Of a stretch of DNA of 64,000 nucleotides, positions 5,501 to 56,614 are shown one piece after another. The notes under the pieces are model-generated. The model was not told where the DNA came from. It searched no databases and saw only the letters and a program-made list of their open reading frames with translations. How positions within the stretch are numbered: position 1 is the first letter of the stretch; the number at the start of each line of letters is the position of its first letter. The translations under genes were made by a program, and so were the position numbers. This DNA comes from Blasia pusilla (lineage: Eukaryota), in assembly GCA_050084515.1 (NCBI GenBank), contig CM114271.1:7316001-7380000 (forward strand). The letters are read 5' to 3'.

Positions 5501-7089
5501 GCTACTCTCGGGTTCACCACCTTGCCTCTCAAAGTCTCGAATGGACGCCGTGATGACCCTCGTGCCCCTCTCACCCGATCACTCCCAACCTCGTGAGTAA
5601 TCCCTCAATCACTCATCCCAAAAATACGTCACTCGATCTACACTCTCCCTCCTCTAGACATGTAGCGTGCGGTAACACGCGGCGTTGTGCGGAAAATTCA
5701 CCAGACTATCATCTCATCGACAACCTACCCTCAACTCCGGACATCCCACACAAGTCTATGTCCCCTAAACCACATACATGAATGATGCTCTCAACATCCA
5801 TACAACCCAATGTCCCCAAATAAACTATCCAAATATCATAATCCCTCACACGTGGAGGGTAAAGGACCAGAATGGGTAACCTGAACACATGTCAATGTCG
5901 CTCCTCAACAACTGCAAATCTCAACCCCAATTTGGTCGTGAAGACAACTCCTCCAATCAGCAAGTTGTACTCCTCTGGTACTGACGCTCCTCAACCTCCT
6001 TGATGTGCGGTGCAAGTCGAGCGGTCCGGTGCGGCACTAGCGGCACGGAACGGCTACAAAACAGCACAGCACTTGGCGGCATATCCTCCTCAATCAGCAA
6101 TTCACACGCTCTGCTCCTTAGTGAAGGAGCGGTTCCGTGATCAAGATGGTGCGGTGCGGCCACGAGCGGCACGGCACAGCAATCGGCGGTGCGTTGCGGC
6201 TACAGGCATTACGGCACGGTACTTGTTCGTCATCGATCGGCTACCAATCACAACATAGCAGCAAGAAATCAAAACTCAAACACCACAATCGGAGGTCATT
6301 TGCTATCAGTGGTTGATGACAAAACAGCGATGACGGTTGCGTCCAAAACAAAGTACGTGGTGGCAACGCAAGTCAGAGAATCAACTAACGTCGTGGAAGA
6401 TCCTCCACTCCCTAATGGCGGCAATGGCAACCAAAGGGTGGACGACGGACGGTGGATCATTGATGGTGACGGTTGACCATCGACGGCGGACTTTTGACGG
6501 TGCCTATGATGGTAACGGCCGCTGTTGGCATGGCGGCTGGTTTAGGGTTTGAACAATTTAACCCTAAAAATTCCCTAACAATGGCAGTTTTGCAAGATTG
6601 ACCATAACTTTTTGCTCGCAACTCCAAATTACGCATTGTTTGTTGCACAAGAGGCACAACTTCATAATCTACGACAACGTCAAAAATATTTAGAATCAAA
6701 CATTCCATTAAAAAATGACGGGGACTGTCATAAAGCCTAATGTCTCTTCCTCCTACATAATATTCGGCAGCGCTTGCGCAGTGATTTCTCCCGACGAAAA
6801 TGTAAAACCTATAAAATTACAAATTAGCAAGCTACATGGTGCTCCGAAGAGCACCGGCATAGGGCAACCCGCCCCCATAATCAATCCCTATCAGAAATTG
6901 GGCAGCGCTTCCGTGCGCCACTCTTCCACACGAAAAAACGGCAAATGCAAAGAACAATCAAAGGAGCCCTTGCTCCGGTCAGCACTCCCATGAGCCGTTG
7001 AACAGGGAACACAGTCCTCAACCTGCAAAAACAGGGAGCGACGAGCAAGCTCTCCCTTGAAGCTCTCTCACTCTCTCATTCTCCCTTTG

Positions 7090-7574
7090 TAAAGTAAGAT
7101 CCAATATCTCTACACCATCTCACACCATAGCTCTCAAAGGTGTGCACTCTCTTAATGAAAGGCTTGGGTTACACTCACAAGGAAAGGGACCATAGCTCCG
7201 CCGCCTCATGCCAAGAGGTTCAACAAAGAGAGAATGAGCTCTCAAGCTCTCTCTCCTTGAGGTATACCCCCTTCCCTCTCCCAAGCCCTCTCAACGATAA
7301 CCTATGCTCGCAGGTCACCTCCTTCGCTCTTGACCAGCTGTAGCGGGTCAAGGGCCACTTCCCAAAGTGTAAAGTCAACTATCCCCAACATGGAAACTTA
7401 CCCAAAATAGTAAGTTTTGCTATATGGCTCCAAATGAGCCGAAACGAAGGGGAAACCTGCTCTCTCAGGTTTCCTGGGGCCTGAACAAGTCATCCTCGAC
7501 CTCCTGGGCGTGTCCTCCACTACTTGTGCAGACGCTCTGCTAGATCCCACCGATCTATCCTAACAGTCGTGACA
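7090..7574 (-). repeat. 5' terminal 'A' repeat of element A (same subfamily as element C's A repeat)
   Basis: Aligns by eye with 43845-43924 plus 53519-53953, and with 21965-22152. It is not preceded by a B repeat and not followed by a canonical PBS. Confidence 0.85.
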
Positions 7575-21835: not shown

Positions 21836-22152
21836 TATCGTGCGCATACACATCGCTACACAACATACATCGATGTCACCAAACACACACATACAAACAC
21901 GCACGATCCCATGCTAACTCATAACATCCAAACAACGAGACAAGAAGTACCAAAATATCTCCAATTAAAATAAGATCTAATCTCTCTCACAACACCATAG
22001 TTCTCACATGTGTGCACTCTCACATGTCTCTCTCAATGTCAAACCAAACCCTCTCTCCTAATTAGAGGCTTGGGTTACACACACAAGGTAAGCAAGAACA
22101 TAGCTCCGCCGCCTCATGCCAAGAGGTTCAACAAAGAGAGAATGAGCTCTCA
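21836..22152 (-). mobile_element. 3'-terminal fragment (B repeat + part of A repeat) of a fourth DNMT-Gypsy family copy
   Basis: tatcgtgcgcatacacatcg...ccaaaatatctccaat followed by the A repeat; homologous to 42680-42888 and 53519-53600. Shows the uninterrupted site aaaccaaaccc where element B inserted in element C. Confidence 0.85.
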
Positions 22153-22789
22153 AGGAAGAGCGTCCAGGATTTTTCTTTTTAACTATTTTCATTATGTTCC
22201 AATTTTTTCAATCTAAAGCTCAACGTGTTTATCTTCTCAAATTTGAATTTTGGGGTCTTTTTTTTCTAATTAAGTTGGGGTTTTCCAAAATTCTTGGGAT
22301 TTTTGGACTTGCTTCTCTCTTGAATACGCTCATAGATTTTTAAACGCAAATTCACGCAAAGCGCTCTTCTTATAGTGTGATTTCGGGTTACCATCGGTTC
22401 AAGGGATTTCTCTTTCTTTTTTCCATCTTTTGCTATAGGATAGTCCCAACATTATGACCTTATTCCCTCATATCAATCATTTGTGCGTGATTCACTTTCT
22501 CTTCACATCCTCTTTCTAGATGTTTCTAATTTCTTTCGTAACTTTCTCTCGTAGTATCGGTTTTGGGCATGTTTGTTCTTATTTTGATCATCTTGACGAG
22601 TTCCTTCTTTTCATACCAAGTAGGTTTTTTTTTTTTTTTTTCCCTCCTTCTCCGTAGGCGCCTATTTTTCATATGGGTTTATTTTAAGTCGATTCCTCTT
22701 AAAAGTCTTCCTTGTTCTTTCTACTCTTTATCGACTACTTCGCCCCTCCATACATTTGCTATCTCCTTAAGGGAATTATAGATTAATAT

Positions 22790-29400: not shown

Positions 29401-31018
29401 GTGTTCATCGATAAAAACGAGTGATGGAAAACCCATCGGAAGTACAAAAGAGGGGGACTCAAAGAGTCAAAACCTGAAGGCCACAACACGACATTCCGAA
29501 GAAGGGGGCATTCCCCCCTAACGACGAAACTCACCAAGTGTTCATCCGGTGCTCGTCGCATTTAAGTGAAAAATCGTTTTTTTCTACTAATATATGCTAA
29601 AGGGGATTTAGTTCCCTGATGTTCTCCCGTGCAAATATGTCTTTCATGACCGACTCATTTAGGCGTGGGAAAAATTATTCGGGATTCATTATCCCGTACA
29701 TCGCACGGGCACCTCCCTTTTCTTCAAAGTTCTCGACCATACAGGTCCACCTATGCACAACTCAAAACCTGCGAGAGTACAAAACCCACAGATTCAGAGG
29801 GCAGTCGAGTTCTTCAACGAGAACGGAACCCAATTTGGTGGGATCCCCAATGTAGGGACGACCCTACATTTAGTGCATCTTCCCAAATGGCCTCGTCACT
29901 TGTGGGACTCGACATTGCGGGCTGCGGGCAGCATCGGCAGGAGTCTCAATCCTCGCACGATCAGCAACTCGATCCATGATAATATTAATCTATCCGTTCG
30001 GTCTCTAAATAATTAAAATGAAAAATAAATAAATGTGAATACATAAATAAGCGAAGAAACCTCGCGTTCAAGCAGCGCGCTCGCGAAAAGGAAGAAAGAT
30101 AGAGAACTACGGGTTGATTCCTTCCTCTTCTTGCCACGCGTTGACGGGGCAAGGAGGGTGGAAGAAGATTGACCCGACCCATCGCAGCCCTAGGGAAAAA
30201 GCGGAAGTGAGAGAGAAAGGGGTAGGAAGGAGGAGAGAGGGTTTCATTCAGCACGCACCGACACGCGGATGCTAAGAGGGAGCACACTATAGGAATTGTA
30301 GAGTCTAGAAGACGGGTGGATTCCGTGGGGCTAGTTGAGGAGGGGGGTTCTGGAAACGAGACGACGGTGGTGGCGACCCGAGGGACCGGAAGGAAGGACG
30401 GAGGATGGGGGAGGGGCGGACGGACTCGAGAGCGCTCAGGCCGCGGACAGCGAAAGGAAGCACGCGGGAAGAAGCGTTGTTTTGTAGAGTGATGATGTCG
30501 TGCGGTGGACGAACGAATGAATGATAGTGCTCTCGCCCTTGGTGTGTGCGGGGAATTCCGGGGAGCTGCAGCGGTAGTAGTAGTGGAAGAGCGGTACATG
30601 AGTGAAGCGTCTAGTGCTTTGAAGACGAGACCGAGAGGAGTTCACATTCCGGAGGGAGGGTATGAGGCTTCATTGATTGTTGTTGATGATTCGGAGGAGG
30701 AAGAGGAGGAGGAGGAGGAGGAGGAAGAAGAGGATGCAGCGAGCGCATAGTGCAGTGGAGGATTAGCAAGATGGGGCCGGATATGGGGCGGGGCGGTTGT
30801 TGTTTGATTACTGTCAGGTTGTGAGCGATGCTGATATCTTCTAGGACGAGAGGAGTGGGTATTGCTTTGCCGGGATTTGGTGCGGGTGCCAAGCACGGCG
30901 GAGGGGAGTGGATCAGTGACGGAAGGGAGAGGAGGAAGTTTGTGACAGCTGAGCGCAGGACGGGAGTTTGTCTTGGGCGAAGGGGAAGCGAACGGAAGCG
31001 AACTCTGCACATAAGGAG

Positions 31019-31022
<4 letters not shown>

Positions 31023-31082
<60 letters not shown>

Positions 31083-31096
31083 TAGAAAGAGAGAGC
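31023..31096. repeat. GA microsatellite in the kinase upstream/5' UTR region
   Basis: (GA)n tract seen directly. Confidence 0.9.
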
Positions 31097-31494
31097 TGAA
31101 GGGAATGGCCGTTTAGGGTTGGGAGACAGTATTGCCCTTCGAGGTTTCTTCAGTGCACGGTCTTTCTTTCTCGGTGGTGGGATTCGCTGTTGTGAGTGAC
31201 AGAATCTTCCGACTGGTCTTAGATGCATGTGCGGGAATCGAGGAAGGCAGTTTGGGAAGTGATCGAAGGTGCGCCGCTTTTTTTGGCGACGAGGAGATTA
31301 TTGTCTCTGCTGAGAATTGAAGACGGGGGAAGGGTTGAGACCCAATTCGATTCCCGACCTCGGGGTGAAGTAAAGGATGGAGTTTCAGCGGCATGGGTAT
31401 GCAGGCCGAGGCTCGACGGTGTCCTGAAGGCAGGCTTTGGTATCAAGGATGACAGTGGTGTGTTGGTAGGTGTACGGGAGAGTGGATATCAGTA

Positions 31495-32679
31495 ATGGGT
31501 TCTGACGAGAAATCCTTGAGAAGGAAAGAGACGGCGAGAGGCGCACGAATTCTTCCGGAAAACTTCCCGAAAAATGGTTACGGGGGGATGGATAGTCCGG
31601 GGGGTTCGAATAATGGGTCGGGTGAGTTTGTGTTGGAGGAGCGCTGGTTGATCGATCCCGCACTTCTGTTCGTAGGTCCGAAAATTGGAGAGGGCGCACA
31701 CGGGAAAGTATACGAGGGTAAATATTTGGACCAAAATGTCGCAGTCAAGATCCTCCAGACGCCAGATACTCCCGAGGAGATGTCAAAAATGGAGTCTCGG
31801 TTTGCCAGGGAAGTGGCGATGCTGTCCAGGGTGGAGCACAAGAATCTTGTGAAGTTTGTGGGAGCATGCAACGAGCCTGTGATGGTCATTGTGACAGAAC
31901 TACTCGGGGGCAAGTCCCTCCGTAAGTACATGGCCAGCCTGAGGCCTAAGCAGTTGGATATCAAGCTAGCTGTCAGCTTTGCCCTCGATATTGCTCAAGC
32001 AATGGACTGCCTCCACTGCAACGGTATCATCCACCGCGATCTCAAGCCCGATAACCTGCTGTTGACCGACGACCAAAAGACAGTGAAACTAGTCGATTTT
32101 GGGCTGGCGAGAGAAGAGACGCTGACTGAAATGATGACAGCAGAAACTGGGACTTACCGGTGGATGGCCCCCGAGCTCTACAGTACAGTCACTCTGAGGA
32201 ATGGTGAGAAGAAACACTACAACCACAAAGTCGATGTTTACAGCTTTGGCATTGTTCTGTGGGAGCTCCTTGTCAATCGCTTACCCTTCGAGGGAATGTC
32301 CAACCTGCAAGCCGCGTATGCCGCAGCTTTCAAGAAGGTCAGGCCGGGGCTTGCGGAGAATTTACCAGAGGACCTAGTTTTCATCCTTCAGTCTTGTTGG
32401 GCCGAAGACCCTGAGGTCCGTCCCAACTTTGCCCAAGTCGTCCGAATGCTGAACACCTTCATGTCAACACTTCCCTCACCGGCCCTCCCAAGTTCTCCCC
32501 TCCTGCCCGTGATTCCCATGCAAGTCGTGGAGGCGACCCCGAACATCAGCAGAACAGGTCAAACAGGCGCGAGTGATCGTAGCAGCAATGGTGGCATCAC
32601 TACGAAGTCTCGAAAGTTTTTTATGTGGTTTGGCCAATGTTTCCTGTCAGGGGCAGAACGAGATGATTCGACTGGCTAA
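31495..32679 (+). CDS. Raf-like group C / STY protein kinase (ATN1-like), single-exon CDS, 394 aa
   Basis: Intact ORF with IGEGAHGKVYEG, VAVK, HRDLKPDN, DFGLAREETLTEMMTAETGTYRWMAPELYSTVTLRNGEKKHYNHKVDVYSFG, GMSNLQAAYAAAF, as in plant ATN1-family kinases. Confidence 0.96.
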   Translation: MGSDEKSLRRKETARGARILPENFPKNGYGGMDSPGGSNNGSGEFVLEERWLIDPALLFVGPKIGEGAHGKVYEGKYLDQNVAVKILQTPDTPEEMSKMESRFAREVAMLSRVEHKNLVKFVGACNEPVMVIVTELLGGKSLRKYMASLRPKQLDIKLAVSFALDIAQAMDCLHCNGIIHRDLKPDNLLLTDDQKTVKLVDFGLAREETLTEMMTAETGTYRWMAPELYSTVTLRNGEKKHYNHKVDVYSFGIVLWELLVNRLPFEGMSNLQAAYAAAFKKVRPGLAENLPEDLVFILQSCWAEDPEVRPNFAQVVRMLNTFMSTLPSPALPSSPLLPVIPMQVVEATPNISRTGQTGASDRSSNGGITTKSRKFFMWFGQCFLSGAERDDSTG

Positions 32680-41014: not shown

Positions 41015-41640
41015 TCATAAATTGTCTAACGGTTTCACGACATCATCTTCTACAAATGCTTTAAGATAATTTTTGTACATATTTTGGTTTTCCATATATG
41101 GTGCATTTTGATTCATAGGTCCACATGGGTCATGACTTATAAAATAAAATCGTGAATGAATACATTGATTAAAGGTTTTTACTAAAATTATTTGGTCATA
41201 TTGGGAAGTGGTATTTGATTTATCCTCACGATCTAAAATAGTAGGGACATGCACATGTGGTAGACCCTTCTTTTCTAATTTCACCACATGAATGCATCCT
41301 ACAATTGACCCTCATATTTTCTTTTTGACGATAAGTTGTAACAATTCCTTCTTCTTCTTCGTCTCAAAGACACATATAACCAAATCCGATCTATCAACAG
41401 GTGACTAACCAGGTAAAAATGATATAAACTTTTCCCACTTCGGATTGCATGTCATAGTCAATAAGTAATAAGGGTTTCCAAGTGCCTCACAATTGCCATT
41501 GCATCTTGATACAATTGATGCATATGATGTGGCTCTTCGATGAACGAAGAGGGTAACACAACACGTCTTCCAACCCTTGTGTTATCCACATCATGACGAT
41601 ACATGACATCCTTTACACCTTGATATAAATTATCCCTCAA
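41015..41640 (-). mobile_element. Helitron Rep (HUH) domain fragment, interrupted by element C
   Basis: QLRDNLYQG..VGRRVVLPSSF..MHQLYQDAMAIVR..MTCNPKW..EKKGLPHVH..HDPCGPMN, matching Helitron Rep motifs (LPSSF..YQDAMA, FTCNPKW, QKRGLPHAH, HGPCG). Confidence 0.88.
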
Positions 41641-44607
41641 CGTGTAAATGCGCATACACATCGTTACACAATATACATCATTTGTCACGAACACACACAC
41701 ACAAACACACACGATCCCATGCTAACTCATGGCATCCATACACAGAGGCGAGAAGTACCAAAATATCTCCAATAAAGTAAGATCAAATCTCTCTCTACAC
41801 CATCTCACACCATAGCTCTCAAAGGTGTGCAGTATCTCTCATGTAAAACCAATGTCATGACCATACGGATTATGTCGTAGAGTATGGTGTCTTTGGTAGA
41901 GGCCATTCCTTATGTAGGACCGTAGTGGCTTGGTAGAGATGCGGTTCCATACATAGGGTTGGGGTTACTCACTTGGGGTGACTTTCCCAGAGGGCCCGCT
42001 CTTAGGTTGGAGGATATAAGGTGGCTTGCCCTCAAAGAATAGTCAGTTCTTTGAGTTGAGCTGTGCGTTGGGAGTTAGCCTTGGTAGTGAGTAGAGCTCT
42101 TGGCTATGATGTTTCCAAGCTAAGCCGACCTAGATTCTCCCATCGTGGAGTGGGTTTGGCTCGATTGTATGTGATTGTAAACGTGTTTTATGACATGAGG
42201 TCTTTCACGGATTTCACTCAAAGAACTGGAGTAGATCGATGGTAGCTTCGATTGTAGATCAGTAGGATCTGGTTAGGGCTGATTGTGTACTCAGCCGTGG
42301 ATGTTCGTGGCTTGTGGCCTATGTTGGAGGTGTGAATCTGGTGCGCGGTTGGTTGGGAAAGAAGCGCCTTGCTGAGAGCTTTCCAATGGGCTTTAGATCG
42401 CCGGATTTCGTCAAGGGAGTTGGAAGTTATCAAGGATTGAAGATTCTGGTTCGTGTTCGACGGTTTTCTGATGTGGAGAGCTTGGAGCGCGGAAGCTGTG
42501 TTGAAGTTCATCCAGATCGGGTGAGAGGTTCCCATTGCATCTTGATACAATTGATGCATATGATGTGGCTCTTCGATGAACGAAGAGGGTAACACAACAC
42601 GTCTTCCAACCCTTGTGTTATCCACATCATGACGATACATGACATCCTTTACACCTTGATATAAATTATCCCTCAACTGTGTCGTGCGCATACACATCGT
42701 TACACAATATACATCGCTGTCACCGAACACACACACACAAACACACACGATCCCATGCTAACTCATGGCATCCATACACAGAGGCGAGAAGTACCAAAAT
42801 ATCTCCAATAAAGTAAGATCAAATCTCTCTCTACACCATCTCACACCATAGCTCTCAAAGGTGTGCAGTATCTCTCATGTAAAACCAATGTCATGACCAT
42901 ACGGATTATGTCGTAGAGTATGGTGTGCTGGTAGAGGCCATTCCTTATGTAGGACCGTAGTGGCTTGGTAGAGATGCGGTTCCATACATAGGGTTGGGGG
43001 TTACTCACTTGGGGGTGACTTTCCCAGTAGGGCCCGCTCTTAGGTTGGAGGATATAAGGTGGCTTGCCCTCAAAGAATAGTCAGTTCTTTGAGTTGAGCC
43101 TGTTGCGTTGGGAGTTAGCCTTGGTAGTGAGTAGAGCTCTTGGCTATGATGTTTCCCGCAAGCTTCGACCTAGATTCTCCCATCGTGGAGTGGGTTTGGC
43201 TCGATTGTATGTGATTGTAAACGTGTTTTATGACAGTAGGTCTTTCACGGATTTCACTCAAAGAACTGGAGTAGATCGATGGTAGCTTCGATTGTAGATC
43301 AGTAGGATCTGGTTAGGGCTGATTGTGTACTCAGCCGTGGATGTTCGTGGCTTGTGGCCTATGTTGGAGGTGTGAATCTGGTGCGCGGTTGGTTGGGAAA
43401 GAAGCGCCTTGCTGAGAGCTTTCCAATGGGCTTTAGATCGCCGGATTTCGTCAAGGGAGTTGGAAGTTATCAAGGATTGAAGATTCTGGTTCGTGTTCGA
43501 CGGTTTTCTGATGTGGAGAGCTTGGAGCGCGGAAGCTGTGTTGAAGTTCATCCAGATCGGGTGAGAGGTTCCCATTGCATCTTGATACAATTGATGCATA
43601 TGATGTGGCTCTTCGATGAACGAAGAGGGTAACACAACACGTCTTCCAACCCTTGTGTTATCCACATCATGACGATACATGACATCCTTTACACCTTGAT
43701 ATAAATTATCCTCAACGTCGTGCGATACACATCGTTACACAATATACATCATTTGTCACCGAACACACACACACAAACACACACGATCCCATGCTAACTC
43801 ATGGCATCCATACACAGAGGCGAGAAGTACCAAAATATCTCCAATAAAGTAAGATCAAATCTCTCTCTACACCATCTCACACCATAGCTCTCAAAGGTGT
43901 GCAGTATCTCTCATGTAAAACCAATGTCATGACCATACGGATTATGTCGTAGAGTATGGTGTGCTGGTAGAGGCCATTCCTTATGTAGGACCGTAGTGGC
44001 TTGGTAGAGATGCGGTTCCATACATAGGGTTGGGGGTTACTCACTTGGGGGTGACTTTCCCAGTAGGGCCCGCTCTTAGGTTGGAGGATATAAGGTGGCT
44101 TGCCCTCAAAGAATAGTCAGTTCTTTGAGTTGAGCCTGTTGCGTTGGGAGTTAGCCTTGGTAGTGAGTAGAGCTCTTGGCTATGATGTTTCCCGCAAGCT
44201 TCGACCTAGATTCTCCCATCGTGGAGTGGGTTTGGCTCGATTGTATGTGATTGTAAACGTGTTTTATGACAGTAGGTCTTTCACGGATTTCACTCAAAGA
44301 ACTGGAGTAGATCGATGGTAGCTTCGATTGTAGATCAGTAGGATCTGGTTAGGGCTGATTGTGTACTCAGCCGTGGATGTTCGTGGCTTGTGGCCTATGT
44401 TGGAGGTGTGAATCTGGTGCGCGGTTGGTTGGGAAAGAAGCGCCTTGCTGAGAGCTTTCCAATGGGCTTTAGATCGCCGGATTTCGTCAAGGGAGTTGGA
44501 AGTTATCAAGGATTGAAGATTCTGGTTCGTGTTCGACGGTTTTCTGATGTGGAGAGCTTGGAGCGCGGAAGCTGTGTTGAAGTTCATCCAGATCGGGTGA
44601 GAGGTTC
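41496..44607. repeat. Three tandem copies of a ~1036-1040 bp unit
   Basis: Units start at 41496, 42532 and 43572. Each contains a Helitron piece, the element C terminus and the first ~680 bp of element B; copies are near-identical apart from small indels. Confidence 0.95.
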
Positions 44608-47600
44608 CTGTTGCTACTCATATTGTGATCTCCTGTGAATCTATCTGCTCAAGTGTGTGGAGCGTTGCGGATTTCTGCGTGCATGAAACTTGGCGGAAGC
44701 GCTGTCGGATTTGCGATTCTGGAGGTGTATGGACAGCAAGTTTGTTTGATTTTTAGCTCGGAGTACAGAGCTCGGTTGTAGCTGATTTTTTGTGGAGAGA
44801 TAGCTATGGTGGTCAATTGATCGAAACAGATTTGATTTCGGTCACGTATTTGTGAAGTAATTTCTGATCGAAATTTCGCGGACTAGCTCAAGGTGTGGCT
44901 ATGGTGGACAGCGGATCGGAGGGGCTGGTTGGTTGGTGACTCGTTCATTTTTGGAGACGCCTATCCCGTTGGGGGCGCCCTGGTTGGACCTCTCTCCATA
45001 GCGAAGCATGGCGAGGCTTTGAGGCAACTCGTGGTAGCTCGGGGCGAGTGGGCGTGAGAGGCGGAGTAAGGAGCAAGCAAGCAAGCTTGCTTGCTTGGGC
45101 GTAAGGCAATTTTTGCAGGATTTGGGATTTGAGTTTTGCATAACTGGTCACCCATCTTTGGGCTATTTGCTGGAGGACGCTTAAGCGCCGAGTTCTTAAC
45201 TATGCCGGTGTCTGTTGTTGTAGCTCATTTGGTCTTTGTTAGGAGATGTGTTAGGCGCTTTATGCATCTCAGGTTTTTGGTTGATGTACCTCTAGCGCGC
45301 ATAGTACGGTGTAGCCTCTCCATGCGGTGATATTTTCAGGTCTTGCGCGATTCGACTAGCACGTCATCGACCCGGCGGAGTAGCTATTGCGTTAGAATTG
45401 TGTGGTGGGTTTTGTGGATTCAGAGGGCACCACGTTTGGTGGATTGTGTTACCTTGATTTCTATTTGCGATTGGAGGATTGTCGTTGGATTTCTGTGTTT
45501 GGATCCCCTCCATCGTGCTTCTTGCTTGCGCGCCCATTGTTAGGGTTGACGCTGATTTCGAGTAGTGTTACTCTGTGTGCTACCGGTAGTGAGGTGGAGG
45601 GATGACGAGTAGATTGTGGGAGACTTCTTGTGGTGATGACAAGTTAGGTTGCCTACACCCATAGCTAGTAGAGCTAGAATAGTATAGCGACATCGGCGTC
45701 ACTTGGTAATTTGGTGGTGGTGCGGCATCGGCGTTGGTCATCACGGAGTGTCAAGTGGTCGGTTGGGGACCGTGGTGCGGCGGTGGTGGTTTCACACGGA
45801 GTGGATTTAGGTATCGGCTACCTTTTCCACGCCGACGGTTGATGAAGAGGAGGGCGAGGTGTTCCAAACACCGAGTCTTCTACGTTGTTATCGAGTGTTG
45901 CATCTCCATTGATTTGGGACATGGACGGTGGATATGGGGCCATGAAGGGCCCCTGACGATACTCGGGTGCAAAGTGGGTACCATTGAGTTGGAGGACTTC
46001 ATGCAGGAGTTTGATACGTGGTGTGATATGCAGATGTTGCGTGAACGCCACGTTGTTTACACCCTTCTTGGCTTGGAAGGGTTGTTTCAAAGACTTGGAA
46101 GGACCACCCATGGATGATTACCATGAGTTTAGGAAGGACCATGTTGTTGAGATTGAGGCATGGAGACAATATTGGTCTCAGGCTATGTGTCTATCACCCA
46201 TGGTGGTATTGGTAGTAGTGCTCCTACTATGCCCGGCCCCGACGCCCGAGTGGTACGAGTCGAGCCGGAGTGGGGGTACCGGTGGAGGTACTAGTGGGGG
46301 TACTAGTGGAGGTACTAGTGCCCCACCATCGTTTAGCCCGATTTGCAGAGAGTTCTTCAAGAGGTTGAAGAAGAACTATCAAGGAGTGAAGACGGAGAAG
46401 TTGAGGAATCTTCAGGACTTTGAGCGAAAAGGCGGTGAGAGTCTTCGTGAGGCATACACGCGTATGCGACGCTTGATTTCAGTTATCCAGGGGGTGTGAC
46501 CGAGGATCAGGCGATCAGTTTTGGTATGGGATCTTGGACAAAGATTTGCGCCGTAGGGTACGTGATGCTACTCTTATGAGTGATGATTCACCCACATTGA
46601 CCCATGTGTTTGCTCTATCTCGAGAAGATTGAGCTTAACATGGTGAAGGAGAGAGTGGTGACATCCGCATTCAAAGAGGGATACAACTACTACTTTCGTG
46701 TTCACCGCCCACCTCACAATCTCGTAGTAGTGGTGGTGGTAGTAGTAGTGGGAGTCGTGGGGGTACACGCGACCTCAATCAAGTCCTAGAGGGACATTTG
46801 TGCAGAGACCATTGCCTTCATTTGCTGCCCCGGCAGCAGGGCGATCATGTTGGACATATGGAGGTGATCATGTTAGGAAGTTTTGTCCCCAAGAGGATGG
46901 GAGACGGACTGCGGAGGATAGGCCTCGGTCGGCCCCAACTCGGTGTGATCATTGCGGGAGACTAGGTCATCCTCAAGAGCGTTGCTTTGATCTTCATCCG
47001 AGTTGAGATCAGGCCGTGGCCGTGGTGGGAGTAGCTCCGAGAGGCCAAGGTGGTAAAGGTGGTAGGGGTGGTAGAGGTGGACCGGTGGTTGGAGAGCCTA
47101 CGGTGGCTACCCCTACCACTATGACAGAGTCGACTATGGTCGCTAGGGTTGAGCATTGGAGCGAAGTTGGCTACTATGGCGGTATCCAAAGATAGATCGG
47201 GTTCGGGAGCAGGGGCTTCCACCTCTTATGGAGGGGATGATCTCTCTTATATGGCGAGTGCAAAGACAAAGTTGAGGCATCAGCTGCGATTCAGAGGAGC
47301 CACTCGAGCGTCGAGCCACGTGGTGCTCTTGTGGAGTTGGACCCCTGAGAGGGGTGAGGGGGAGGCAAGGCTAGGCTTCCCCAGTCATTCTTGTTGTATG
47401 AGGTGCTTAGGACTCCATCCATGGTTCCTCGCAGCCTATTGAGCCGACAGTGGGGATCGAGGCATCTACATCGCGTGTAGTAGAGACACGGATGCAACAT
47501 CCAATGCAAAGATTGCGGATGGCAACCGGTGTTGGGATCCCCATTGTTTTCGCCACGGAGCGATGGCTTTAGGAGTTGACTTAGCTCCTGTATTTCCCGA

Positions 47601-48458
47601 TTAGCGACCACGTTGTGTGAACGTGGGGTGTATTCTTGCTACACGTGTTGAGGTGGATGAGGGTGTTGCGGTGGAGCGACCCTCTATGTCGGAGTAGCAT
47701 TGAGTACGGTGCTACTTGGCAAAGCGGCGGGCGAAGATGGATGCATTACCACCGGCCAGCCATTGATCGTGAGAGGCTTACACTGGTGTATGTATGTTGG
47801 ACAACTGGAGTGGGATCTTCCGATTGGTGAGTCCTACAGGACAGGTGTATAGACCAGATAGAGTCTTGTTAGACTCTGGTGCCCAACCTTTGATGTTGGG
47901 AAAGGCGGCATGTATTGGTTTGGGTATTCGGAGGTCAGAGCTTGAGCCTTGCCCATTCCAGATTCAAACATCACTTGGAGGAGCCAATGATAGGTCTCAA
48001 TTCATGACACGGGAGAAGTTTTCTGTACAGTTGAGACCAAATCATGCGACTGATAGCTCCCGGTTGGGAGTATCTGCGGTAGTCACATCAACTGAGTCGT
48101 ATGATGTACTAGTTGGAGGAGCAGTATTGTACCCGATGGGTTTTCAGATGGATTACTAGACCGAGACAGCGTCTTATAGACCAGGTTGGCGGTCCGGGAT
48201 GGACGTATGAGCCAAGTTCTTGTGAGATTTATTTCTGGGGCTCGACCAGGAGGGTCTTCCCCAACAGTGTTAGCATCTGTGGCTGGTTTTAGTGGAGTAG
48301 TCACTTGGCCAGGAGACTTTTTGGAGGGTAATGTTTCTGCTATGGATTCTCCTGCGCATGACGAGGAAGAGGAGGCCCCACGGCGGACTCCTACTTCTGG
48401 CCCAGTTGGGTTATCCCCTTTGGATACTACACCCATTGTATGGCAGTATTCGTCGGAC

Positions 48459-49392
48459 GGCATTTGTGTGTTAGATCTCTTTGGTGGGATTAGCACTGGT
48501 TTGGCTGTAGTGTTGCAGGCCGGTATTCCTGTGCGGAGATACGTGTATGTGGAGCGAGATGAGACGGCCCACAGAGTCTCATCCCGACATATTGGTCGAT
48601 TGATGCGGAGATATCTGAGTTGTTGCCGCCATCAGCTATTCGTGGGTACCAGCGTGCTTTACCATCACACATTGCATTGTTGGGGGCGCAGGACCTTGAG
48701 AGAATTGGTCCTGTGGATTTGGTGATTGCTGGATGGCCATGTCAGGGTCATACACGTGCTGGTGGGGGTGAGGGATTACATGACCCTAGGTCTCGATTGT
48801 TTTGGGAGATGTTACGGGTGTTACGACATCTTGAGTTCATCGAGCACGTGCTCTAGCTTACATTCGGAGAATGTTCCATTGTTGGGTGACACTCGGACCG
48901 GATGATGGCGAGTGTTCATGAGGTGCGCTCTTGGATTGGACCAGCGGTGTTGTTGGATGGAGCGCGAGTTGGCTCAGCGTGTACATAAATCCACGCTTGT
49001 GGTGGACAAACTTGTTGCCTAGGGAGGTTCTCGTCGAGCATATGATGCGATGGCGGTATCCTCGCTTCGATGGATAGTATCTTGAATCTTGGCGACTTTC
49101 CCAAGTGGTGAGGGTTATTGATCGGTCACCCATGGCGGTGGTGAACCGTGTGGGCCAGCCTAGGATGGCACTACCCACATTTGTGAGTTTTCCTCGTCAC
49201 ATGCCTACAGGAAGGTGGTCGGGGCTTGTATGGGATTCTCATGTGCGGCGAGTTGGTGGAGCCTAACGCTGATGAGAGAGCGTGCGATGGGATTTGCTCT
49301 TGGTGTGACAACGGTTGCTTCTATTTTCGAGGCTTCACGACGTCATGTGTTGGGTCAGGCCATGGACCTGAATTGTTTGACTTGGATTTTTA
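48459..49392 (+). pseudogene. DNMT3-like C5 cytosine methyltransferase domain of element B (frameshifted as assembled)
   Basis: GICVLDLFGGISTGL (I), YVYVERD (II), DLVIAGWPCQG (IV, catalytic Cys intact), GLHDPRSRLFWEMLRVL, ENVP (VI), WWTNL (VIII), ERAMGF..SRRHVLGQAMD (IX/X). Confidence 0.93.
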
Positions 49393-49973
49393 GTCTTGGT
49401 ATGGCGAGCAAAGCGTCGACTTTGGACTATGTCTGTGGGTCTTCCACCCCTTGTAATGAGCTCGATGGCTCTGGGGACGGTAGAGGCATCGGCTGAAGCG
49501 AGGAGAGTAGTATTTTGCATCCTTGGAGTAGATGGGATGTAATGGTGGGCATGTGGAGTTGGTTGCTCATCTTTGCTGGTGGATGAGTTATTTGCTCGAG
49601 ATGATGGTGTAGCTAAGGGTGTACCATCTTGTGAGGGGGTTATGAGCGACCAATGGCATCGCCCTCTCCCTCTAGTGTGCCAGTGGAGGAGACTTGGGAG
49701 CCATTACTTGGGCCCAAGCTTACGGGAGGTGAGAAACGACGCTTGACACACTTCCTACGTGCTTATAGGAGTTGTTTTGCCTTTAGCATGAAGGAGTTGG
49801 GTTCTCTGGTTGGACCTGGTATACGGATTGATTTGGCTAGTGATACGCCAATCTTCCGTCATCCCTACCGATATAGTGATATGGAGAGGGACTTGATTCA
49901 GAGTAGGACGTTGGACCTTTTGGAGGCTGGATTAGTGGAGTTGTCCCATGGAGAGTATGCATAAGCCACTGTC

Positions 49974-51107
49974 ATGCCTGCTAAAAAGGATATGCATGGC
50001 AACTACACGGATAGGCGGATGTGTGGAGATTACCGTCCTATCAATCGGCAAACCAAGGCCGATAGGTATGCCATGCCTACACCTGAGGAGATCTTTGATG
50101 TGGTGGGACAAGCAAAGATTTTCAGTACTTTGGATCTTCGGGCAGGATACCATCAATTGCTGATTCGGGAGAGTGACAAGGCCAAGACAACATTTTGGGG
50201 TGTCAACTCTCATGGCAAGGATTGTTTGTACCAGTGGAAATTCTTACCCTTTGGGTTGAAGAATGCACTGCCGAGTTTCAAGAGTGATGGATGGAGGATC
50301 CTAGCAGGGTTGGATTTTGTTCGGTGTTACATTGATGATATCTTGGTGTTCAGTAACACGGTGGAGGAGCATCAGATACATTTGCAGATGGTGTTTGAGC
50401 GGTTGAAAGCTCATGGTCTACGTTTGCATCCAGGAAAGTGTAAGTTCTTCCATGAGGATGTTGAGTACTTGGGTCATGTGATCTATCCAGGTGGTTTGGG
50501 AGTTCAGCAAGCAAAGGTGGAGGCTATTGCACTTATTCCGCGTCCGATAGATGTGAGTAGAGTTCGAGCATTCATGGGATTGGCGAACTACTATCGGAGG
50601 TATGTGAAGGGATTTAGTGCTATGGCAAAGCCTTTGAACCAATTGCTGAAATCAGATCAAAAGTGGCACTGGGGAGATGATCAGGAGAGAGCTTTTGTGG
50701 AGCTTAAGGCCCAGTTGGTGGCGGCGCCTATCTTGAGGAGACCTATCAGAGGGTGCCCATTTCAGTTACACACTGATTGGAGTAGGTTGGGACTTGGAGC
50801 GGTGTTGACACAACATGATGATGAGCACATGGAGTTTGTGGTGGCCTATGCAAGTCGTTCGAATAATGCAGCAGAGTCGCGCTATAGTTCATATGAGGGA
50901 GAGTGCTTGGCAATAGTGTGGGCTGTGGCACACTTTAGGTGTTACTTGTTTGGCACAAAATTTACCCTTGTTACTGATCACCAGCCGCTCAAGTGGTTGA
51001 TGGAGTCGGACAAGCTTACAGGGAAGCTTGCACGGTGGGCTCTTATCTTACAGGAGTATGACTTCCAGGTGGTACATAGACCTGGAGTTGCCAACCTTGA
51101 TCTTTGA
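49974..51107 (+). CDS. Reverse transcriptase + RNase H segment of element B pol
   Basis: CGDYRPIN, LDLRAGYHQL, LPFGLKNA, YIDDILVFS, TDWSRLGLGAVL, TDHQPLKWL. Confidence 0.95.
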   Translation: MPAKKDMHGNYTDRRMCGDYRPINRQTKADRYAMPTPEEIFDVVGQAKIFSTLDLRAGYHQLLIRESDKAKTTFWGVNSHGKDCLYQWKFLPFGLKNALPSFKSDGWRILAGLDFVRCYIDDILVFSNTVEEHQIHLQMVFERLKAHGLRLHPGKCKFFHEDVEYLGHVIYPGGLGVQQAKVEAIALIPRPIDVSRVRAFMGLANYYRRYVKGFSAMAKPLNQLLKSDQKWHWGDDQERAFVELKAQLVAAPILRRPIRGCPFQLHTDWSRLGLGAVLTQHDDEHMEFVVAYASRSNNAAESRYSSYEGECLAIVWAVAHFRCYLFGTKFTLVTDHQPLKWLMESDKLTGKLARWALILQEYDFQVVHRPGVANLDL

Positions 51108-52618
51108 TGGGTTGAGTAGGAACCCATGTACTAGCCAAGAGGATACAAGCGGGGCTAGATGGCATGGCGAGGTTGATGAGGAGATGGTGCCAGGTTGGCA
51201 TGCATCCGCCTTTTATGTTGGTTAGGTGGACTCTAGTATGGAGGACCACATGATATCTTACTCTAGTCGAGGGTAGATGGCCGGCCTTGAGATCCTAAGG
51301 TTGGAGATGGTGGTACGGATCACCGTGATATTCATGATGATGCGTTGGTGTTGGAGTTCCCTACGGATCAAGTAGGGTGCGGACATAGTGAGTGCCAAGG
51401 AGCGAGACCGTGTTCTTCAACGTGCTAAGAGGTATCGATTGGAGGGAACACATATTCTCCGCGTATGGGAGGATGGTAGAGTACAGTAGTGCCACATTTG
51501 ACTCGAGAGAGAGCGCATTGTGCGACATGCCCATGAGGAGTTGGGACATTTTGGGGTAAAGCGCACGTATAGCTTACTCCTTGGCGATTGGTGGCGTGGC
51601 ATGCATACTCAGGTGCAGCGATTGGTGTCACGTTGTATGGTTTGTGACCGGGTGAGGGCATCATTTAATGCCCCTACACCACAATTATACCCCTTGCCTA
51701 TTATAGGGTTGGGTTACCGTTGGAGTGTGGACTTTTTGGGACCGTTACCTTTTTGACCGACATCATCGATATGTGTTGGTGATGGTGGAGCACTTCTCCA
51801 AGTGGATTGAGTTGGTGGCATTACCGGACAAGGCAAGTGAGGAACGGCGTATGCGTTTCTGGATAGAGTGCTTAGTCATTTTGGTGCACCACCGGCTGAA
51901 GTCTTTGACCGACCACCGAGGTCTGAGTTTCAAGGTGAGTTTCAGGTCTTGTGTGACAAGGGGTTGATTGATCATCGGACCACGTCTCGAGATCATCCAG
52001 AGGCGGATGGTTTGGCTGAGCGTGTGGTTCAGACGGTGAAGAGGGCATTGCGCAAGTATGGCCTATAGAAGGGGCATCTTGGAGACTAGGATATTCAGTT
52101 GCCATGGTTAGCCATCGGGTATAGGTTGATCGCCAAGCATCCTTGGCTTCCTTCTCACCTTATTTTTGTTATCGGCCGAGATCCGGACTTGCTAGCAAAG
52201 CAATTCGTTGGGAGTCTAGTGAGGTGGTGAACCTTGATGACCCGAGAGATGTGGATGAGGGTGTGTTCTCGGGCGGAGCTCTTCGGAGAGTTATGCCAAC
52301 GGCCTTTGAGAATCTTGCCATTGCTCAACACGGGGATACGTTGCGGTATGCAACCATTGGGTGGAGGTTATCGACCATCGATTCAGAGGTTCCATGTGGG
52401 GACTATGTCTTTGGCAGCACATTGCCCGACAACGTTGGATGTGACGACAGGCCGCACTATTTTACGAGTGCGTGAGGTGTTAGCTTCTGGAGTTCTCATG
52501 TTGGAGGGTCGTGATGGAGTTGTTTGGAAGGACCATGTGCGTAATTGTGCGCCATATCATCTTCCAAATGTGGATGGTACTGTTGACCCAAGCTTAGCCA
52601 TGATACGTGCTAGCTAGC

Positions 52619-52765
52619 TTGAGGTGCATGTTGTGTGGATATGCTGGTAACGCAGCCTGTATGTTGGTGTGTGATCGGTGTTCTAGGGGTTGGCACATGA
52701 TGTGTTTGACTCCACGTTTGGATGTTGTTCCTACTGGAAGGTGGGTTTGTCCTCGATGTACTTAG
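52619..52765 (+). other. PHD finger at the pol C-terminus of element B
   Basis: LRCMLCGYAGNAACMLVCDRCSRGWHMMCLTPRLDVVPTGRWVCPRCT* (C4HC3). Put out of frame here by a 4-bp TAGC duplication; in frame with the integrase tail in element C. Confidence 0.93.
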
Positions 52766-54675
52766 GAGAGGTAGATGACTTGATCTTTGCATGATATGGA
52801 TTACAGATGTGCGACTTACGATGGGGCAACCTAGCACCCGGCCTTCTGATTTGGGCATCCAAGAAGGTGTATAGCATGTAGTAGATGTATAGGGCTACCA
52901 GGAGTTAGAGGACCTAACCGCTTGATTAGGGGGCGAGTTGTGGTACACTTGCGTTTGTGGATACTCTCGTCTATGTTATGTATGTATGTGCGTATGGTAT
53001 GTCAGCGATGTATGTTGTATGACGATGTGGATTCGCACGACAGCTGTCATGACCATACGGATTATGTCGTAGAGTATGGTGTGCTGGTAGAGGCCATTCC
53101 TTATGTAGGACCGTAGTGGCTTGGTAGAGATGCGGTTCCATATATAGGGTTGGGGGTTACTCACTTGGGGGTGACTTTCCCAGTAGGGCCCGCTCTTAGG
53201 TTGGAGGATATAAGGTGGCTTGCCCTCAAAGAACAGTCAGTTCTTTGAGTTGAGCCTGTTGCGTTGGGAGTTAGCCTTGGTAGTGAGTAGAGCTCTTGGC
53301 TATGGTGTTTCCCGCAAGCTTCGACCTAGATTCTCCCATCATGGAGTGGGTTTGGCTCGATTGTATGTGATTGTAAACGTGTTTTATGACAGTAGGTCTT
53401 TCACGGATTTCAGTTGTGGTACACTTGCGTTTGTGGATACTCTCGTCTATGTTATGTATGTATGTGCGGATGGTATGTCAGCGATGTATGTTGTATGAAG
53501 ATGTGGATTCGCACGACACCAAACCCACTCTCCTAATGAGAGGCTTGGGTTACATTCACAAGGCAAGGGACCATAGCTCCGTCGCTTCATGCCAAGAGGT
53601 TCAACAAAGAGAGAATGAGCTCTCTCCTCTCCCCTTGAGGTATACCCCTCCCCTCTCCCAAGCTCTCTCCATGGTAACCTATTCTCCCAAGTCATCTCCT
53701 TGGCTCTTGACCCGATGTAGGAGGTCAAGGGCCACTTACCAAAAATAAAAATTCGATCATATACTCAAAATGGTACTTACCTAAAATAGTAAGTTCCTCA
53801 ATATGGCTCCAAATGAGTTGAAACGAAGGGGAAACCTGCTCTCTCACATTTCCCAAGACCTTAGCAAGTCATCCTTGACCTACTGAGCCTGTCCTCCACT
53901 ACTCACGAAGGTGCTCTACTACATCTTACCGATCTATCCTAAAAGACGTGACAGTTGTCGTGCGCATACACATCGCTGTCACCGAACACACACAAAAACA
54001 CACACGATCCCATGCTCACTCATGGCATCCATACATAGAGGCGAGAAATACCAAAATATGTCCAATCGCCCCTCTAGTTGGTGGTTAGGTCACTGTAACT
54101 CCAAATAGCCATCTATCCCTACCTACCACGACATACACCTCTAGGACGCTAAGAGCAGAAAGATCAAGTGCTCATGTGGCCCCATCGTTAGTCGCCTTTC
54201 TGTCATCCATGTCACAAAAAAATTCGGAATCGAAACCTACCTAGTATCTCCTCTATGTACATCTGGGACACATCCATCGTCCCCGAGGAACCCTAGTGAG
54301 AGGTGGTGTCAGACATGCCATATGCCAACCTCTCAAACATCCATCACAGACTAGCATCCTGGCCGCACCACCAGGAGATCCACATAACATACAACGCAAA
54401 CTTGCAGGAACTACTGCTGAGCTCACATCTACTGTACCATCAATGGTAGGAAGGTGACATGGCGCATAATTATGCACATGGTCCTTCCATACCATACCAT
54501 CGCGTCCCTCCAGCAAGAGAACACCAGAGGGCAAAACGTCACGCACTCTCAGGATAGTGCGCCTTGCAGTCACATCCAACATCGTCAGTGCCGTCTGCTG
54601 CAAGTAGACATAATCTCCCTGATGAAACCTCCAGATAGTTGGTCGATAACCACCACCCCGAATAGTTGCGCGCAC

Positions 54676-56614
54676 GTCTCTAGGATGTGAGGCATACGAA
54701 AGAGGGCCTTTTCGGCGCTCGGTTTAAGTCCACTTAAGAAGATCACCTTTTTCATATGTTCATCCGTGGAAAGTGCACTCATGAGTGCACTAAACTCTTG
54801 CACATAAGCGCCAAGGGATCCGCTCTGGCGTAACCTCACAACCTCCATGCCATTGCAATACTCCTGATATTCCAGAGTGAATCGGTTCCCAATCAACTCC
54901 TTGAAATCTTCCCAACTCAACGTTTTCCCACGGCCTAGATGTTCTTTACGGTGAGCCGTCCATCAATGGAGAGCGTGATTCTTCAGAAACGTAACGTGAC
55001 CGCCACAGTTACCTTGTCTTGTTCATCTGCCTTTTGTGCTTCGAAATAAAGTTCGAGTTCCGTTAGAAACTCGCTCACTTTCCAAGGACGCCCCATTCCT
55101 GTGAATGGCGTTGGCAAATTTGTCTTACAAAGCTTCTTGTCGAAACTAGAGGCTCCATTTGACTTGAATTCCATTATCACCTTGCTGTGTTCGGCCATCT
55201 GGTTCGCCATCACCTTCATCAATCCCATCATTTGGATATAAAAGGCCGGATCGTTTGAGTTTGGAATCGAAGGTCCCGCGGAAAGATTTTCGGTTGGAAC
55301 ATCCTCATGTCTATGACTTGGCACTTTGGGAGTCGCCATTTCCACCTTTGGCTCTCGGTCCGTCATTGATTCGTCTCTTGGTTTTTTTGCTTTGACTCGC
55401 GGTTTCCTCAGTTCTTCGCCCTTGGTCGCCATTTGCAAGTCTTCCCTTTCTCAGATCTCCTCCCCGCCTCTTGTGTTCCTCCTTGGGCGTCGCGGTCTTC
55501 CGGCTACCTTGAGTTCTCCCCAAACGTCCAGATCTTCTAGGACCCCAAGCTCACGCTCATCAAGGATTAGCTCTGATACCACGTGCTGTGCGCCTACTCT
55601 CCTTGAACGTTAATCTTGTTTGTTGCGGAAGCGTGCGTTCAGTAGGTCACGCTCTCAACGCTGATCTGCATCCTAACACGTCCTCTGGTTAGTCGGGTCT
55701 TGGATCAATCAACGGGCTAACTTTTTGAGTTCTCGTCTCGGACTCTCATCAAGCTCAACCTTCCTAGTTTCGCGGTTTACAACACGGGCAAGTCTCGAAA
55801 GACTTGGGACAGACTTTCTGGTCGGTTCAGGAACCTAAAACGGCGTTTCGCGCCTGGCGATTCCAACTGTCTGATGGACATCCAATTAGTTCCTCACCAA
55901 GACTCGCACGAAGTGAATCTCGGGTTGGAATCCAAGTGTGGCGTACAAAGTCTACTCCCTTGGATCAGGTTTGGGTTTCGAGTTCCAACGCCAAACTCCC
56001 ATTCCATCACGTGCCTTTGAAACGCCGTTTGGTGCCCAAAGTGGGGATTCGTGTTCCAAGACATCTTGGAGAGATTCCTCCCTTACTAGTACTTCTGGGG
56101 ATCTCCGGGGCCCCCCTACATTTAGGGAAAGACACCCGGGCCTCTCGAATTGGCCCTCAACCCGATTGCTCTCACAATTTTTTCTGGCCAATATCTCAGC
56201 ATGTACGTATGATTTTGCTAAGATCTTTAATGAGTTGGAAGCATCTCAAGATAAGCTTTCCAACGTGCCCTTACTTGTTCCGAATGCAGCTTGGAGCTCA
56301 ACGTTATGGTCCTAAACACAGTCACATTCTCCCAAACGCTAGTCGTGTTCCAAATTGGTTCTCACCTCTTTGGCAACCAACCTCCCAAGACTCAACTCAT
56401 CTCAAGTCTTGGTTCGCGTTTGGTCTAGGTTTCCTGGTCGCGATCACTAACGCATGAAACGCACAACTCTGTTCCGCATTTCGTCTCTTAGACTTTTCCA
56501 AGAGACTTTTCCAAACGCCTCTCCAAAGCGCAAACCTCGCAGCGTGAGTTCACTTGAGTTCTGATGTTTCGCTTGGCGCCTATTTGGTGTTGTTTGGTTA
56601 TGAGGGTCGCGACA
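54676..56614 (-). mobile_element. Element D: truncated Gypsy element (5' LTR, PBS, gag)
   Basis: LTR-like 56614 (TGTCGCGACCC) to ~55584, PBS TGGTATCAGAGC at 55570-55581, retrotransposon gag (PTPFTG..FLTELELYF; SWEDFKE..LRQSGSLGAYVQEF..FLSGLKP). Fused directly to the element C integrase tail. Confidence 0.85.

Follow-up and report, generated by a model that had tools for sequence, protein, structure and literature searches.

In the textbook view, long terminal repeat (LTR) retrotransposons insert a linear complementary DNA (cDNA) by its two ends, and split direct repeats are used to diagnose tyrosine-recombinase elements. Elements of the DIRS order (DIRS1, PAT, Ngaro and VIPER) typically make no target-site duplication. 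Here, we analyse a stretch of 64,000 nucleotides from Blasia pusilla (contig CM114271.1 of assembly GCA_050084515.1, positions 7,316,001 to 7,380,000 of the forward strand), which we call the window and whose positions we count from its first base. It contains on its plus strand a retrotransposon, element B (43925-53518), in which a split-repeat architecture is found on a classical integrase element with target-site duplications.

The closest described system is KnitGypsy-Dnmt3 of Klebsormidium nitens, for which the legend of Fig. 4c in de Mendoza et al. (2018, Nat Commun, PMC5890265) gives a DIRS-like repeat arrangement together with Gypsy domains. As far as the passages of that paper on this element go, it shares with element B a Gypsy-type pol, a C5 DNA methyltransferase (DNMT) in the polyprotein and repeats in the order A-coding-B-A-B. 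The same passages devote one sentence to the repeats and contain no mechanism, no analysis of the primer-binding site (PBS) or the polypurine tract (PPT) and no target duplication. Element B differs from KnitGypsy-Dnmt3 in being closest to liverwort proteins (82–83%). The original prediction for this locus, made from the sequence alone, held the combination of split repeats and a DDE integrase to be previously undescribed; this does not hold, as the legend cited above had already put it in print. In our literature search, de Mendoza et al. (2018) was the sole description found of integrase elements with a split-repeat layout. A search directed at Marchantia found nothing specific, and a 2026 preprint on DAM-encoding LTR elements mentions neither 'split direct' nor 'Klebsormidium'. 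Element B extends the Gypsy-DNMT lineage with DIRS-like repeats, which had been reported before, by a new member on the liverwort side. What is new here is a conserved PPT that adjoins repeat B1, and a site adjacent to repeat A1 that is complementary to a site in A located 28–29 nt past a TATA box.

Three further groups of elements share single features with element B. According to the literature passages on PAT, TOC1, Ngaro and DIRS elements, these have split direct repeats in the order A1..B1-A2-B2, and their internal B|A junction mirrors the joined termini, as in element B. Element B is unlike them in its HHCC/DDE integrase, its TG..CA ends, its 4-bp duplication and its Ty3-type reverse transcriptase (RT), and no tyrosine recombinase was found in it. 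Elements of the Tf1/sushi group and of the plant Tcn1 clade are described as having a PBS that is complementary to the 5′ end of their own RNA and not to a tRNA, which is what we predict for element B. In these descriptions they have ordinary paired LTRs, unlike element B, and the likeness is one of the priming feature, not a phylogenetic placement. The relevant passages of Neumann et al. (2019, PMC6317226) also mention predictions of self-priming in some clades of plant Gypsy and Copia elements. Lastly, integrase cleavage of palindromic LTR-LTR junctions has been reported for a foamy virus (PMC1180852) and HIV-1 (PMC1905944). In these reports, the cleaved CA..TG junction is internal and consists of facing LTR ends, and the enzyme is a DDE integrase, which is similar to the route that we propose below. 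In retroviruses, however, junction cleavage is presented as a side route acting on a by-product, whereas in element B every LTR contains the junction, which would have to be used for integration.

Split repeats and target-site duplication of element B

The self-comparison of the window reveals that element B has the layout A1-internal-PPT-B1-GC-A2-B2, all on the plus strand. Repeat A1 (43925-44292) starts with TGTCATG and recurs as A2 (53045-53412) with 98.9% identity over 368 bp. Repeat B1 (52937-53042, with its start at 52936/7) ends with CACGACA and recurs as B2 (53413-53518, start at 53412/3) with 98% identity over 107 bp. B1 is separated from A2 by the dinucleotide GC, and A2 directly adjoins B2, with no extra bases between them. 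The outer termini of the element are TGTCATG...CACGACA. The junction between B1 and A2, which we call J (53036-53051), reads CACGACA-GC-TGTCATG; it is near-palindromic, with two integrase end sequences that face each other. Integrated copies have the form A..B-NN-A-B or A..B, where NN stands for two bases, and they are not bounded by two identical LTRs; a conventional pair of LTRs would be present only in the predicted cDNA. In our reading, A1 corresponds to the 3′ part of U3 (unique 3′ region) plus R/U5 (repeat and unique 5′ region) of the LTR made in reverse transcription.

Element B is flanked by CCAA on its left (43921-43924) and on its right (53519-53522), which is a 4-bp target-site duplication according to both the sequence and an empty-site alignment. 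The paralogous empty site is found at 21838-22151, where the alignment of the left flank stops at 22047 and the alignment of the right flank begins at 22044. The two flank alignments overlap by exactly CCAA, which proves the duplication and argues against a chance match of four bases. In contigs of other sequencing runs, position 43919 is joined directly to 53518 (two contigs in X3 and one in X13). The layout, coordinates and termini that the original prediction gave for element B, as well as the CCAA duplication, are thus upheld.

The same architecture is present in a second family in the window, which is read on the minus strand and is found in three elements or fragments. Element C has a different repeat sequence and the same 3′ layout. 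Its 3′ end (53519-54708) consists of a remnant of the integrase C-terminus and the PHD finger (54708->54268), a purine tract that serves as the PPT, B′1 (54066->53956), the dinucleotide AC and A′2 (53953->53519). This A′2 is the insertion target of element B; it resumes at 43924, beyond element B, and is followed by B′2 (43718-43924 for the remaining A′2 and B′2, with the end at about 43718). Element A (1-7574), which is cut by the window start and has the order gag-protease (PR)-DNMT-RT, has at its 5′ end (7574) only A′ (A′1, 7574->7090), after which comes non-B sequence. The third case is the truncated fragment at 21838-22154, the paralogous empty site of element B, in which A′ and B′ are contiguous (22154->21838). 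All three had been recognized correctly from the sequence.

At the 5′ boundary of element B, the window contains a tandem array (41493-44608, plus strand) of three units with a period of 1036 bp, which are 97.7–98.5% alike in the self-comparison. Each unit combines 5′-flanking sequence of element B with a copy of A and ~316 bp from the start of the interior, and the joints of the units have a 13-bp sequence, GGTGAGAGGTTCC, in common. The array looks like a post-insertion duplication across the 5′ boundary of element B.

Coding content and classification

The domain order of element B, as obtained with tblastn, is gag-PR-C5 DNMT-RT-RNase H-HHCC/DDE integrase-PHD. Gag remnants with a CCHC-like knuckle (Retrotrans_gag, 45957-47006, frame broken) are followed by an aspartic protease with the motif LLDSGA (47773-48159) and by a C5 cytosine DNMT domain in several frame pieces (48180-49496), which sits between PR and RT inside the Gypsy polyprotein. 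Downstream of these are the RT with a Ty3-type RNase H (49635-51107), the integrase (IN) with an HHCC zinc domain, a DDE core (rve) and a C-terminal part (51388-52584, frame broken), and a PHD finger at the end of the polyprotein (52616-52762); all of these are on the plus strand. The only open piece is a 380-aa RT-RNase H stretch at 49965-51107, and elsewhere the frame is broken in many places.

Pfam matches in element B are Retrotrans_gag, DNA_methylase, RVT_1, RT_RNaseH, RT_RNaseH_2, Integrase_H2C2 (4.8e-13) and rve, the last of which is weak because the frame is split. The RNase H is of the Ty3 type (PF17917/PF17919), and the best PDB matches to the RT piece are Ty3 4ol8 (E 1.6e-65) and 7q5b, both at about 1e-65. 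The DNMT was placed at the level of the Pfam family (PF00145, 1.5e-7 at 48563-48856), and its region aligns to the DNMT parts of the relatives P0037 and P0076. A match to the tyrosine recombinase profile (PF00589) was found in none of the 20 open reading frame (ORF) pieces of element B on both strands, and PF00589 is absent from the precomputed Pfam domains of the 120 relatives listed. Among these relatives, the named proteins with the highest identity belong to Marchantia polymorpha (83%; this one includes a DNMT domain) and Calypogeia fissa (82%), followed by Klebsormidium nitens (48–54%, for PF00145 proteins compared to the RT-RNase H of the window) and Closterium (about 50%). Many of the listed relatives contain PF00145 (DNMT) and PF00628 (PHD).

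Element B shows the features of Ty3/Gypsy elements, namely the order PR-RT-RNase H-IN, a Ty3-type RT, an integrase with HHCC and DDE domains, TG..CA ends and a short target duplication. When we compare it to the DIRS order, the split direct repeats are present, a tyrosine recombinase was not found and a target duplication is present. We conclude that element B belongs to the Gypsy-DNMT lineage of streptophytes and is a retrotransposon of the Ty3/Gypsy type. The proposed combination of a split layout with a DDE integrase is borne out by the HHCC/DDE domains and the Ty3-type RT.

The split layout in related elements

To place the layout in a wider context, we used a metagenome scan that resulted in 80 loci with an RT identity of 40–88%. 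All of these were annotated with A and B probes, which matched 24 loci, and duplicate loci were dropped (L022 is the same as L021, L026 as L024 and L047 as L018). Complete A..B-NN-A-B copies with their own flanks are found at L021 (duplication AAGG), L024 (CATA) and L031 (AATC), in addition to the copy in the window (CCAA). At L037 only the B-A-B 3′ end is present, and L036 and L008 show B-A before they are cut off by the locus end. Three loci contain A-internal-B without A2-B2, again with their own duplications (L010, TGTG; L025, GGTA/AGTA, with three of four positions; L035, TACA), and six have B-only 3′ ends (L002, L003, L012, L018, L023 and L038). Among independent metagenome loci of the element B family, seven thus have B-A.. 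(including a variant, L054) versus nine with B only. The 4-bp duplication is perfect in six of the seven complete copies and agrees at three of four positions in the seventh.

The junctions are constant across copies. The spacer NN has a length of 2 nt in all 12 readable junctions (GC, AC, TC or AT), and A2|B2 joins the base before the PBS exactly to the base after the PPT in each of the seven readable copies. None of the metagenome loci classified with the A and B probes has ordinary paired LTRs, the arrangement that the original prediction had set against its own; however, many relatives lack A2-B2, as the nine B-only loci show. None of the 12 independent 5′ ends, with the window counted, shows the mirror form A-B-NN-A-internal-B. 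In a third lineage (L033, L040 and L046; RT identity 53–58%), the 3′ architecture is again the same, PPT|B...ACA-NN-T(G/A)TTAGG...A|B. Since the layout recurs in independent copies with their own flanks, in the second family of the window and in this third lineage, we conclude that, as judged from the sequences, it is an inherited trait of the lineage and not an accident, in agreement with its initial description as a family trait. At 17 more distant loci (RT identity 40–51%), a more sensitive self-comparison yielded no interpretable terminal repeats, and a scan of viral contigs found no relative.

Some loci have irregular ends. At L020 (3260-3602), the PHD-encoding sequence continues directly into A, which is present from about position 180 onwards, just past the self-primer site described below; B and the flank follow. 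At L008 (6852-7107), a deletion of ~30 bp covers the B/A junction at an ATGA microhomology. Both are probably later deletions. Five contigs of distant relatives (L041, L051, L073, L074 and L075; 9–13.7 kb, RT identity 40–47%) have identical ends of 99–141 bp and hence look circular. These ends are most likely due to repeat collapse in the assembly, and we did not count them as evidence for circles.

Predicted priming sites next to the split repeats

The positions at which the two strands of the cDNA would start can be read next to the repeats. In element B, the polypurine tract AGGGGGCGA (52928-52936) adjoins B1. Wherever this boundary could be read (sets of 6, 3 and 12 rows, and element C), a purine run ends at the base before B1; it takes the forms TAGGGGGCGA, TAGAGGGGCGA, CTAGGGGGGCGA, ATAGGGGGGTA, ATAGAGGGGGG and ATAGGGAGG.

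On the other side of the interior, the 12–16 nt directly after A1 are the reverse complement of a site within A. In element B, the predicted PBS CTCAAAGAACTG (44293-44304), which adjoins A1, is exactly complementary over 12 nt to CAGTTCTTTGAG (44118-44129), the predicted transcript 5′ end and self-primer. At L021, the exact complementarity between PBS and self-primer extends over 16 nt (16–20 nt overall). Element A has quite different sequences, CAAAGGGAGAATGAG and CTCATTCTCTCTTTG, which pair over 15 nt including one G.U pair, and L031 shows partial PBS complementarity. When A was shuffled, the duplex energy was reached by 5 of 300 shuffles for the window, by 3 of 300 for L031 and by none of 300 for L021 and for element A. 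Furthermore, one position of the PBS and the self-primer differs between the window and L021 on both sides, from G:C to A:T, which is a compensatory change.

The self-primer site is located at a nearly constant distance from a TATA box. In element B, TATAAG (44089-44094, in A1) lies 29 nt upstream of the site; in element A, the landmarks on the minus strand are TATA at 7266, the self-primer site at 7238->7224 and the PBS at 7089->7075. The distance is 28–29 nt in both families of the window; in the metagenome copies that were aligned, it is about 30 nt. The TATA box, 28–30 nt upstream, takes the forms TATAAG, TATAAAG or TATACC. As the self-primer site begins ~28–29 nt past the TATA box, it is likely the start of the transcript, and since the PBS is complementary to this site, the 5′ end of the RNA is likely the primer, as in Tf1. 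In both the minimum free energy and the centroid folds, the first 13–17 nt of the predicted leader pair with the PBS. These observations suggest Tf1-type self-priming of the minus strand.

We also considered a tRNA-type PBS at the conserved GGAGTAG that follows TGG 10–19 nt past A1 (window 44303-44310; L021 about 2036-2045). This candidate was rejected because a primer at this site would add bases between A2 and B2, where none are seen. A also contains a local palindrome, CTCAAAGAA..TTCTTTGAG, at 44103-44129 in the window, which recurs in the metagenome copies aligned with it; as a result, a copy of the PBS-like sequence lies past the TATA box and ahead of the predicted start of the transcript.

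One locus has an aberrant copy that may be a fossil of this process. L054 (3244-3879) reads internal-PPT-B-GC-A(1-342), followed by the PBS sequence and then by an inverted A. The inverted A begins exactly at the self-primer site and ends with ...CATGACA, after which comes unrelated flank. This single case would be expected if a plus strand that terminated in the PBS folded back onto the A of the same strand and was elongated, and integrase subsequently cleaved the product at J.

A proposed route of reverse transcription and integration

The original prediction had postulated a distinct route of replication and integration. The sequences point to a specific one, in which the integration step is plausible. 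We lean, with slightly better than even confidence, towards the explanation that an integrated copy is a circular permutation of an ordinary LTR-pair cDNA, whose ends were joined and which integrase cut at CA-NN-TG. Its two halves are not equally firm: the reverse-transcription half, with a self-primed minus strand and an LTR of the form B-NN-A, is probably right given the priming sites, and the joining-and-cutting half, to which we give a little under an even chance, is what we infer from the junctions.

In the first half, minus-strand synthesis would start directly after A1, primed by the 5′ end of the RNA itself, and plus-strand synthesis would start directly before B1 at the conserved PPT. 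With these two starting points, reverse transcription would give the linear cDNA [B-NN-A]-internal-[B-NN-A], and hence the true LTR would be B-NN-A. Within this LTR, the terminal ..CACGACA of B and the initial TGTCATG.. of A would then face each other across two bases, and this CA-NN-TG junction resembles that of a retroviral two-LTR circle. In the second half, the two cDNA ends would be joined, right end to left end, which would leave the scar-free A2|B2 junction. Integrase would cut the CA-NN-TG of one LTR and insert those ends with a 4-bp stagger, such that the outer ends of the integrated copy would be the two halves of the internal CA-NN-TG. The product, A-internal-B-NN-A-B, would be the shortest linear form that again gives a terminally redundant RNA, with R located in A. 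If both internal sites were used, or if B1 and B2 recombined later, A-internal-B copies would result, which we expect to be dead ends.

Several points weigh against this proposal. The sequencing runs consist of contigs and none is on record as RNA; four of them, when compared to the window, gave no molecule starts or ends, and RNA ends, cDNA forms or circles were not observed. Every examined copy is degenerate (0 intact among eight complete metagenome elements), so none is shown to be active. A symmetric two-LTR circle should yield the mirror isomer equally often, and this was seen at none of the 12 5′ ends; the joining-and-cutting step therefore needs an asymmetry that the proposal leaves unexplained. 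The A-internal-B copies fit double cutting, one-LTR circles or a later deletion between B1 and B2, and thus they do not discriminate between routes. The complementarity of the PBS is weak in the decayed copies L024 and L026, where 30 and 115 of 300 shuffles reach the duplex energy, and the leader fold of the window is overall not unusually stable (z -0.94), compared to z -2.64 for the fold of L021. Lastly, one run is guessed to be RNA, and a contig of it extends from A2 64 nt into B2; if this contig is RNA, transcripts may extend past A2.

The absence of the mirror isomer is predicted by a route in which integration comes first, which we consider unlikely as a whole. Here, integrase would cut only the CA-NN-TG of the left LTR on the linear cDNA, ~110 bp from its end, and insert both ends so created. 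The chromosomal break between the A end of the cDNA and the freed B fragment would then be closed by host end-joining, which gives A-internal-B-NN-A-B; in a variant, single-strand annealing of the two B copies gives A-internal-B, and a free circle is not needed. This would explain that both forms are about equally common and that the mirror isomer is missing (0/12), the latter if integrase reaches only sites near a DNA end. It draws on the PBS, the PPT and the junctions in the same way as the circular permutation does. However, it is pure inference, including the limit on the distance that integrase can reach, and it needs a transposition step that leaves a double-strand break.

The contig that spans A2 into B2, if it is RNA, would fit a route in which the RNA reads through B2 and the minus strand begins at the 3′ end of B2. 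The cDNA would then be [B-NN-A]-internal-[B-NN-A-B], and integrase would use the natural right end (B..CA) together with the internal TG..A site of the left LTR. This route predicts both observed forms and no mirror isomer, but there is no primer site at the end of B2, where the flank follows directly. Moreover, it leaves unexplained both the conserved self-complementary site that adjoins A1 and the fossil at L054, with the PBS sequence after the end of A. We regard it as quite unlikely.

It is very improbable that the basic unit is A-internal-B and that A2-B2 is a separate short element or a partial tandem copy alongside it. Copies of the A-internal-B form do exist with their own 4-bp duplications (perfect at L010 and L035, three of four positions at L025). 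However, B1 and A2 are invariably 2 nt apart (12/12) and not separated by a 4-bp duplication, and the outer duplication flanks the whole A..BAB unit. In addition, such a unit lacks a downstream R and has no means of regenerating the portion of A that precedes its transcription start.

That an ordinary LTR (A+B) element was rearranged once or misassembled, or that a DIRS/PAT-type element was moved by a tyrosine recombinase encoded elsewhere, is barely credible: the layout is identical to that of PAT/Ngaro elements in the literature passages on these, but such an origin is contradicted by the same layout in independent copies, contigs and lineages, by the TG..CA ends and 4-bp duplications, by the Ty3-type RT and by the lack of PF00589 in the 20 ORF pieces and the 120 relatives listed.

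Returning to the circular permutation of an LTR-pair cDNA, we tentatively extend it, with rather less than even confidence, to the whole streptophyte lineage (liverworts, Klebsormidium, Closterium and others), which may integrate obligatorily via joined cDNA ends by cutting a built-in palindromic CA-NN-TG within the LTR in place of the cDNA termini. If this is true, split repeats would be an outcome of the logic of reverse transcription and junctions that was reached independently with a DDE enzyme, and the lineage would provide a natural system for the circle junction as an integration substrate.

Implications for annotation and element biology

Annotation pipelines that pair LTRs and check duplications will assign wrong boundaries to such elements or drop them, and classifiers may call them DIRS. 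The route derived from the sequences is testable and is relevant to the long-standing question of whether integration can use LTR-LTR junctions as substrates. How PAT/Ngaro elements, which have the same layout, rebuild their ends may also become clearer from it. Furthermore, the DNMT and the PHD finger that these elements encode link the lineage to the epigenetic conflict between transposable elements and their hosts in early land plants.

Other features of the window

Three further observations were made in the window. Between 13882 and 15949 on the minus strand, there is a remnant of another Gypsy-type RT-RNase H-integrase region, which has 26–34% identity to the relatives of element B and belongs to a different family. 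At 53496-53852, in repeat A′ of the second family, the summed contig depth of the DNA runs is several-fold above that of the interior of element B, which hints at many extra or solo copies of this repeat. The region 30001-32000 has a G+C content of 53% and a G-over-C skew of 0.38, unlike its surroundings.

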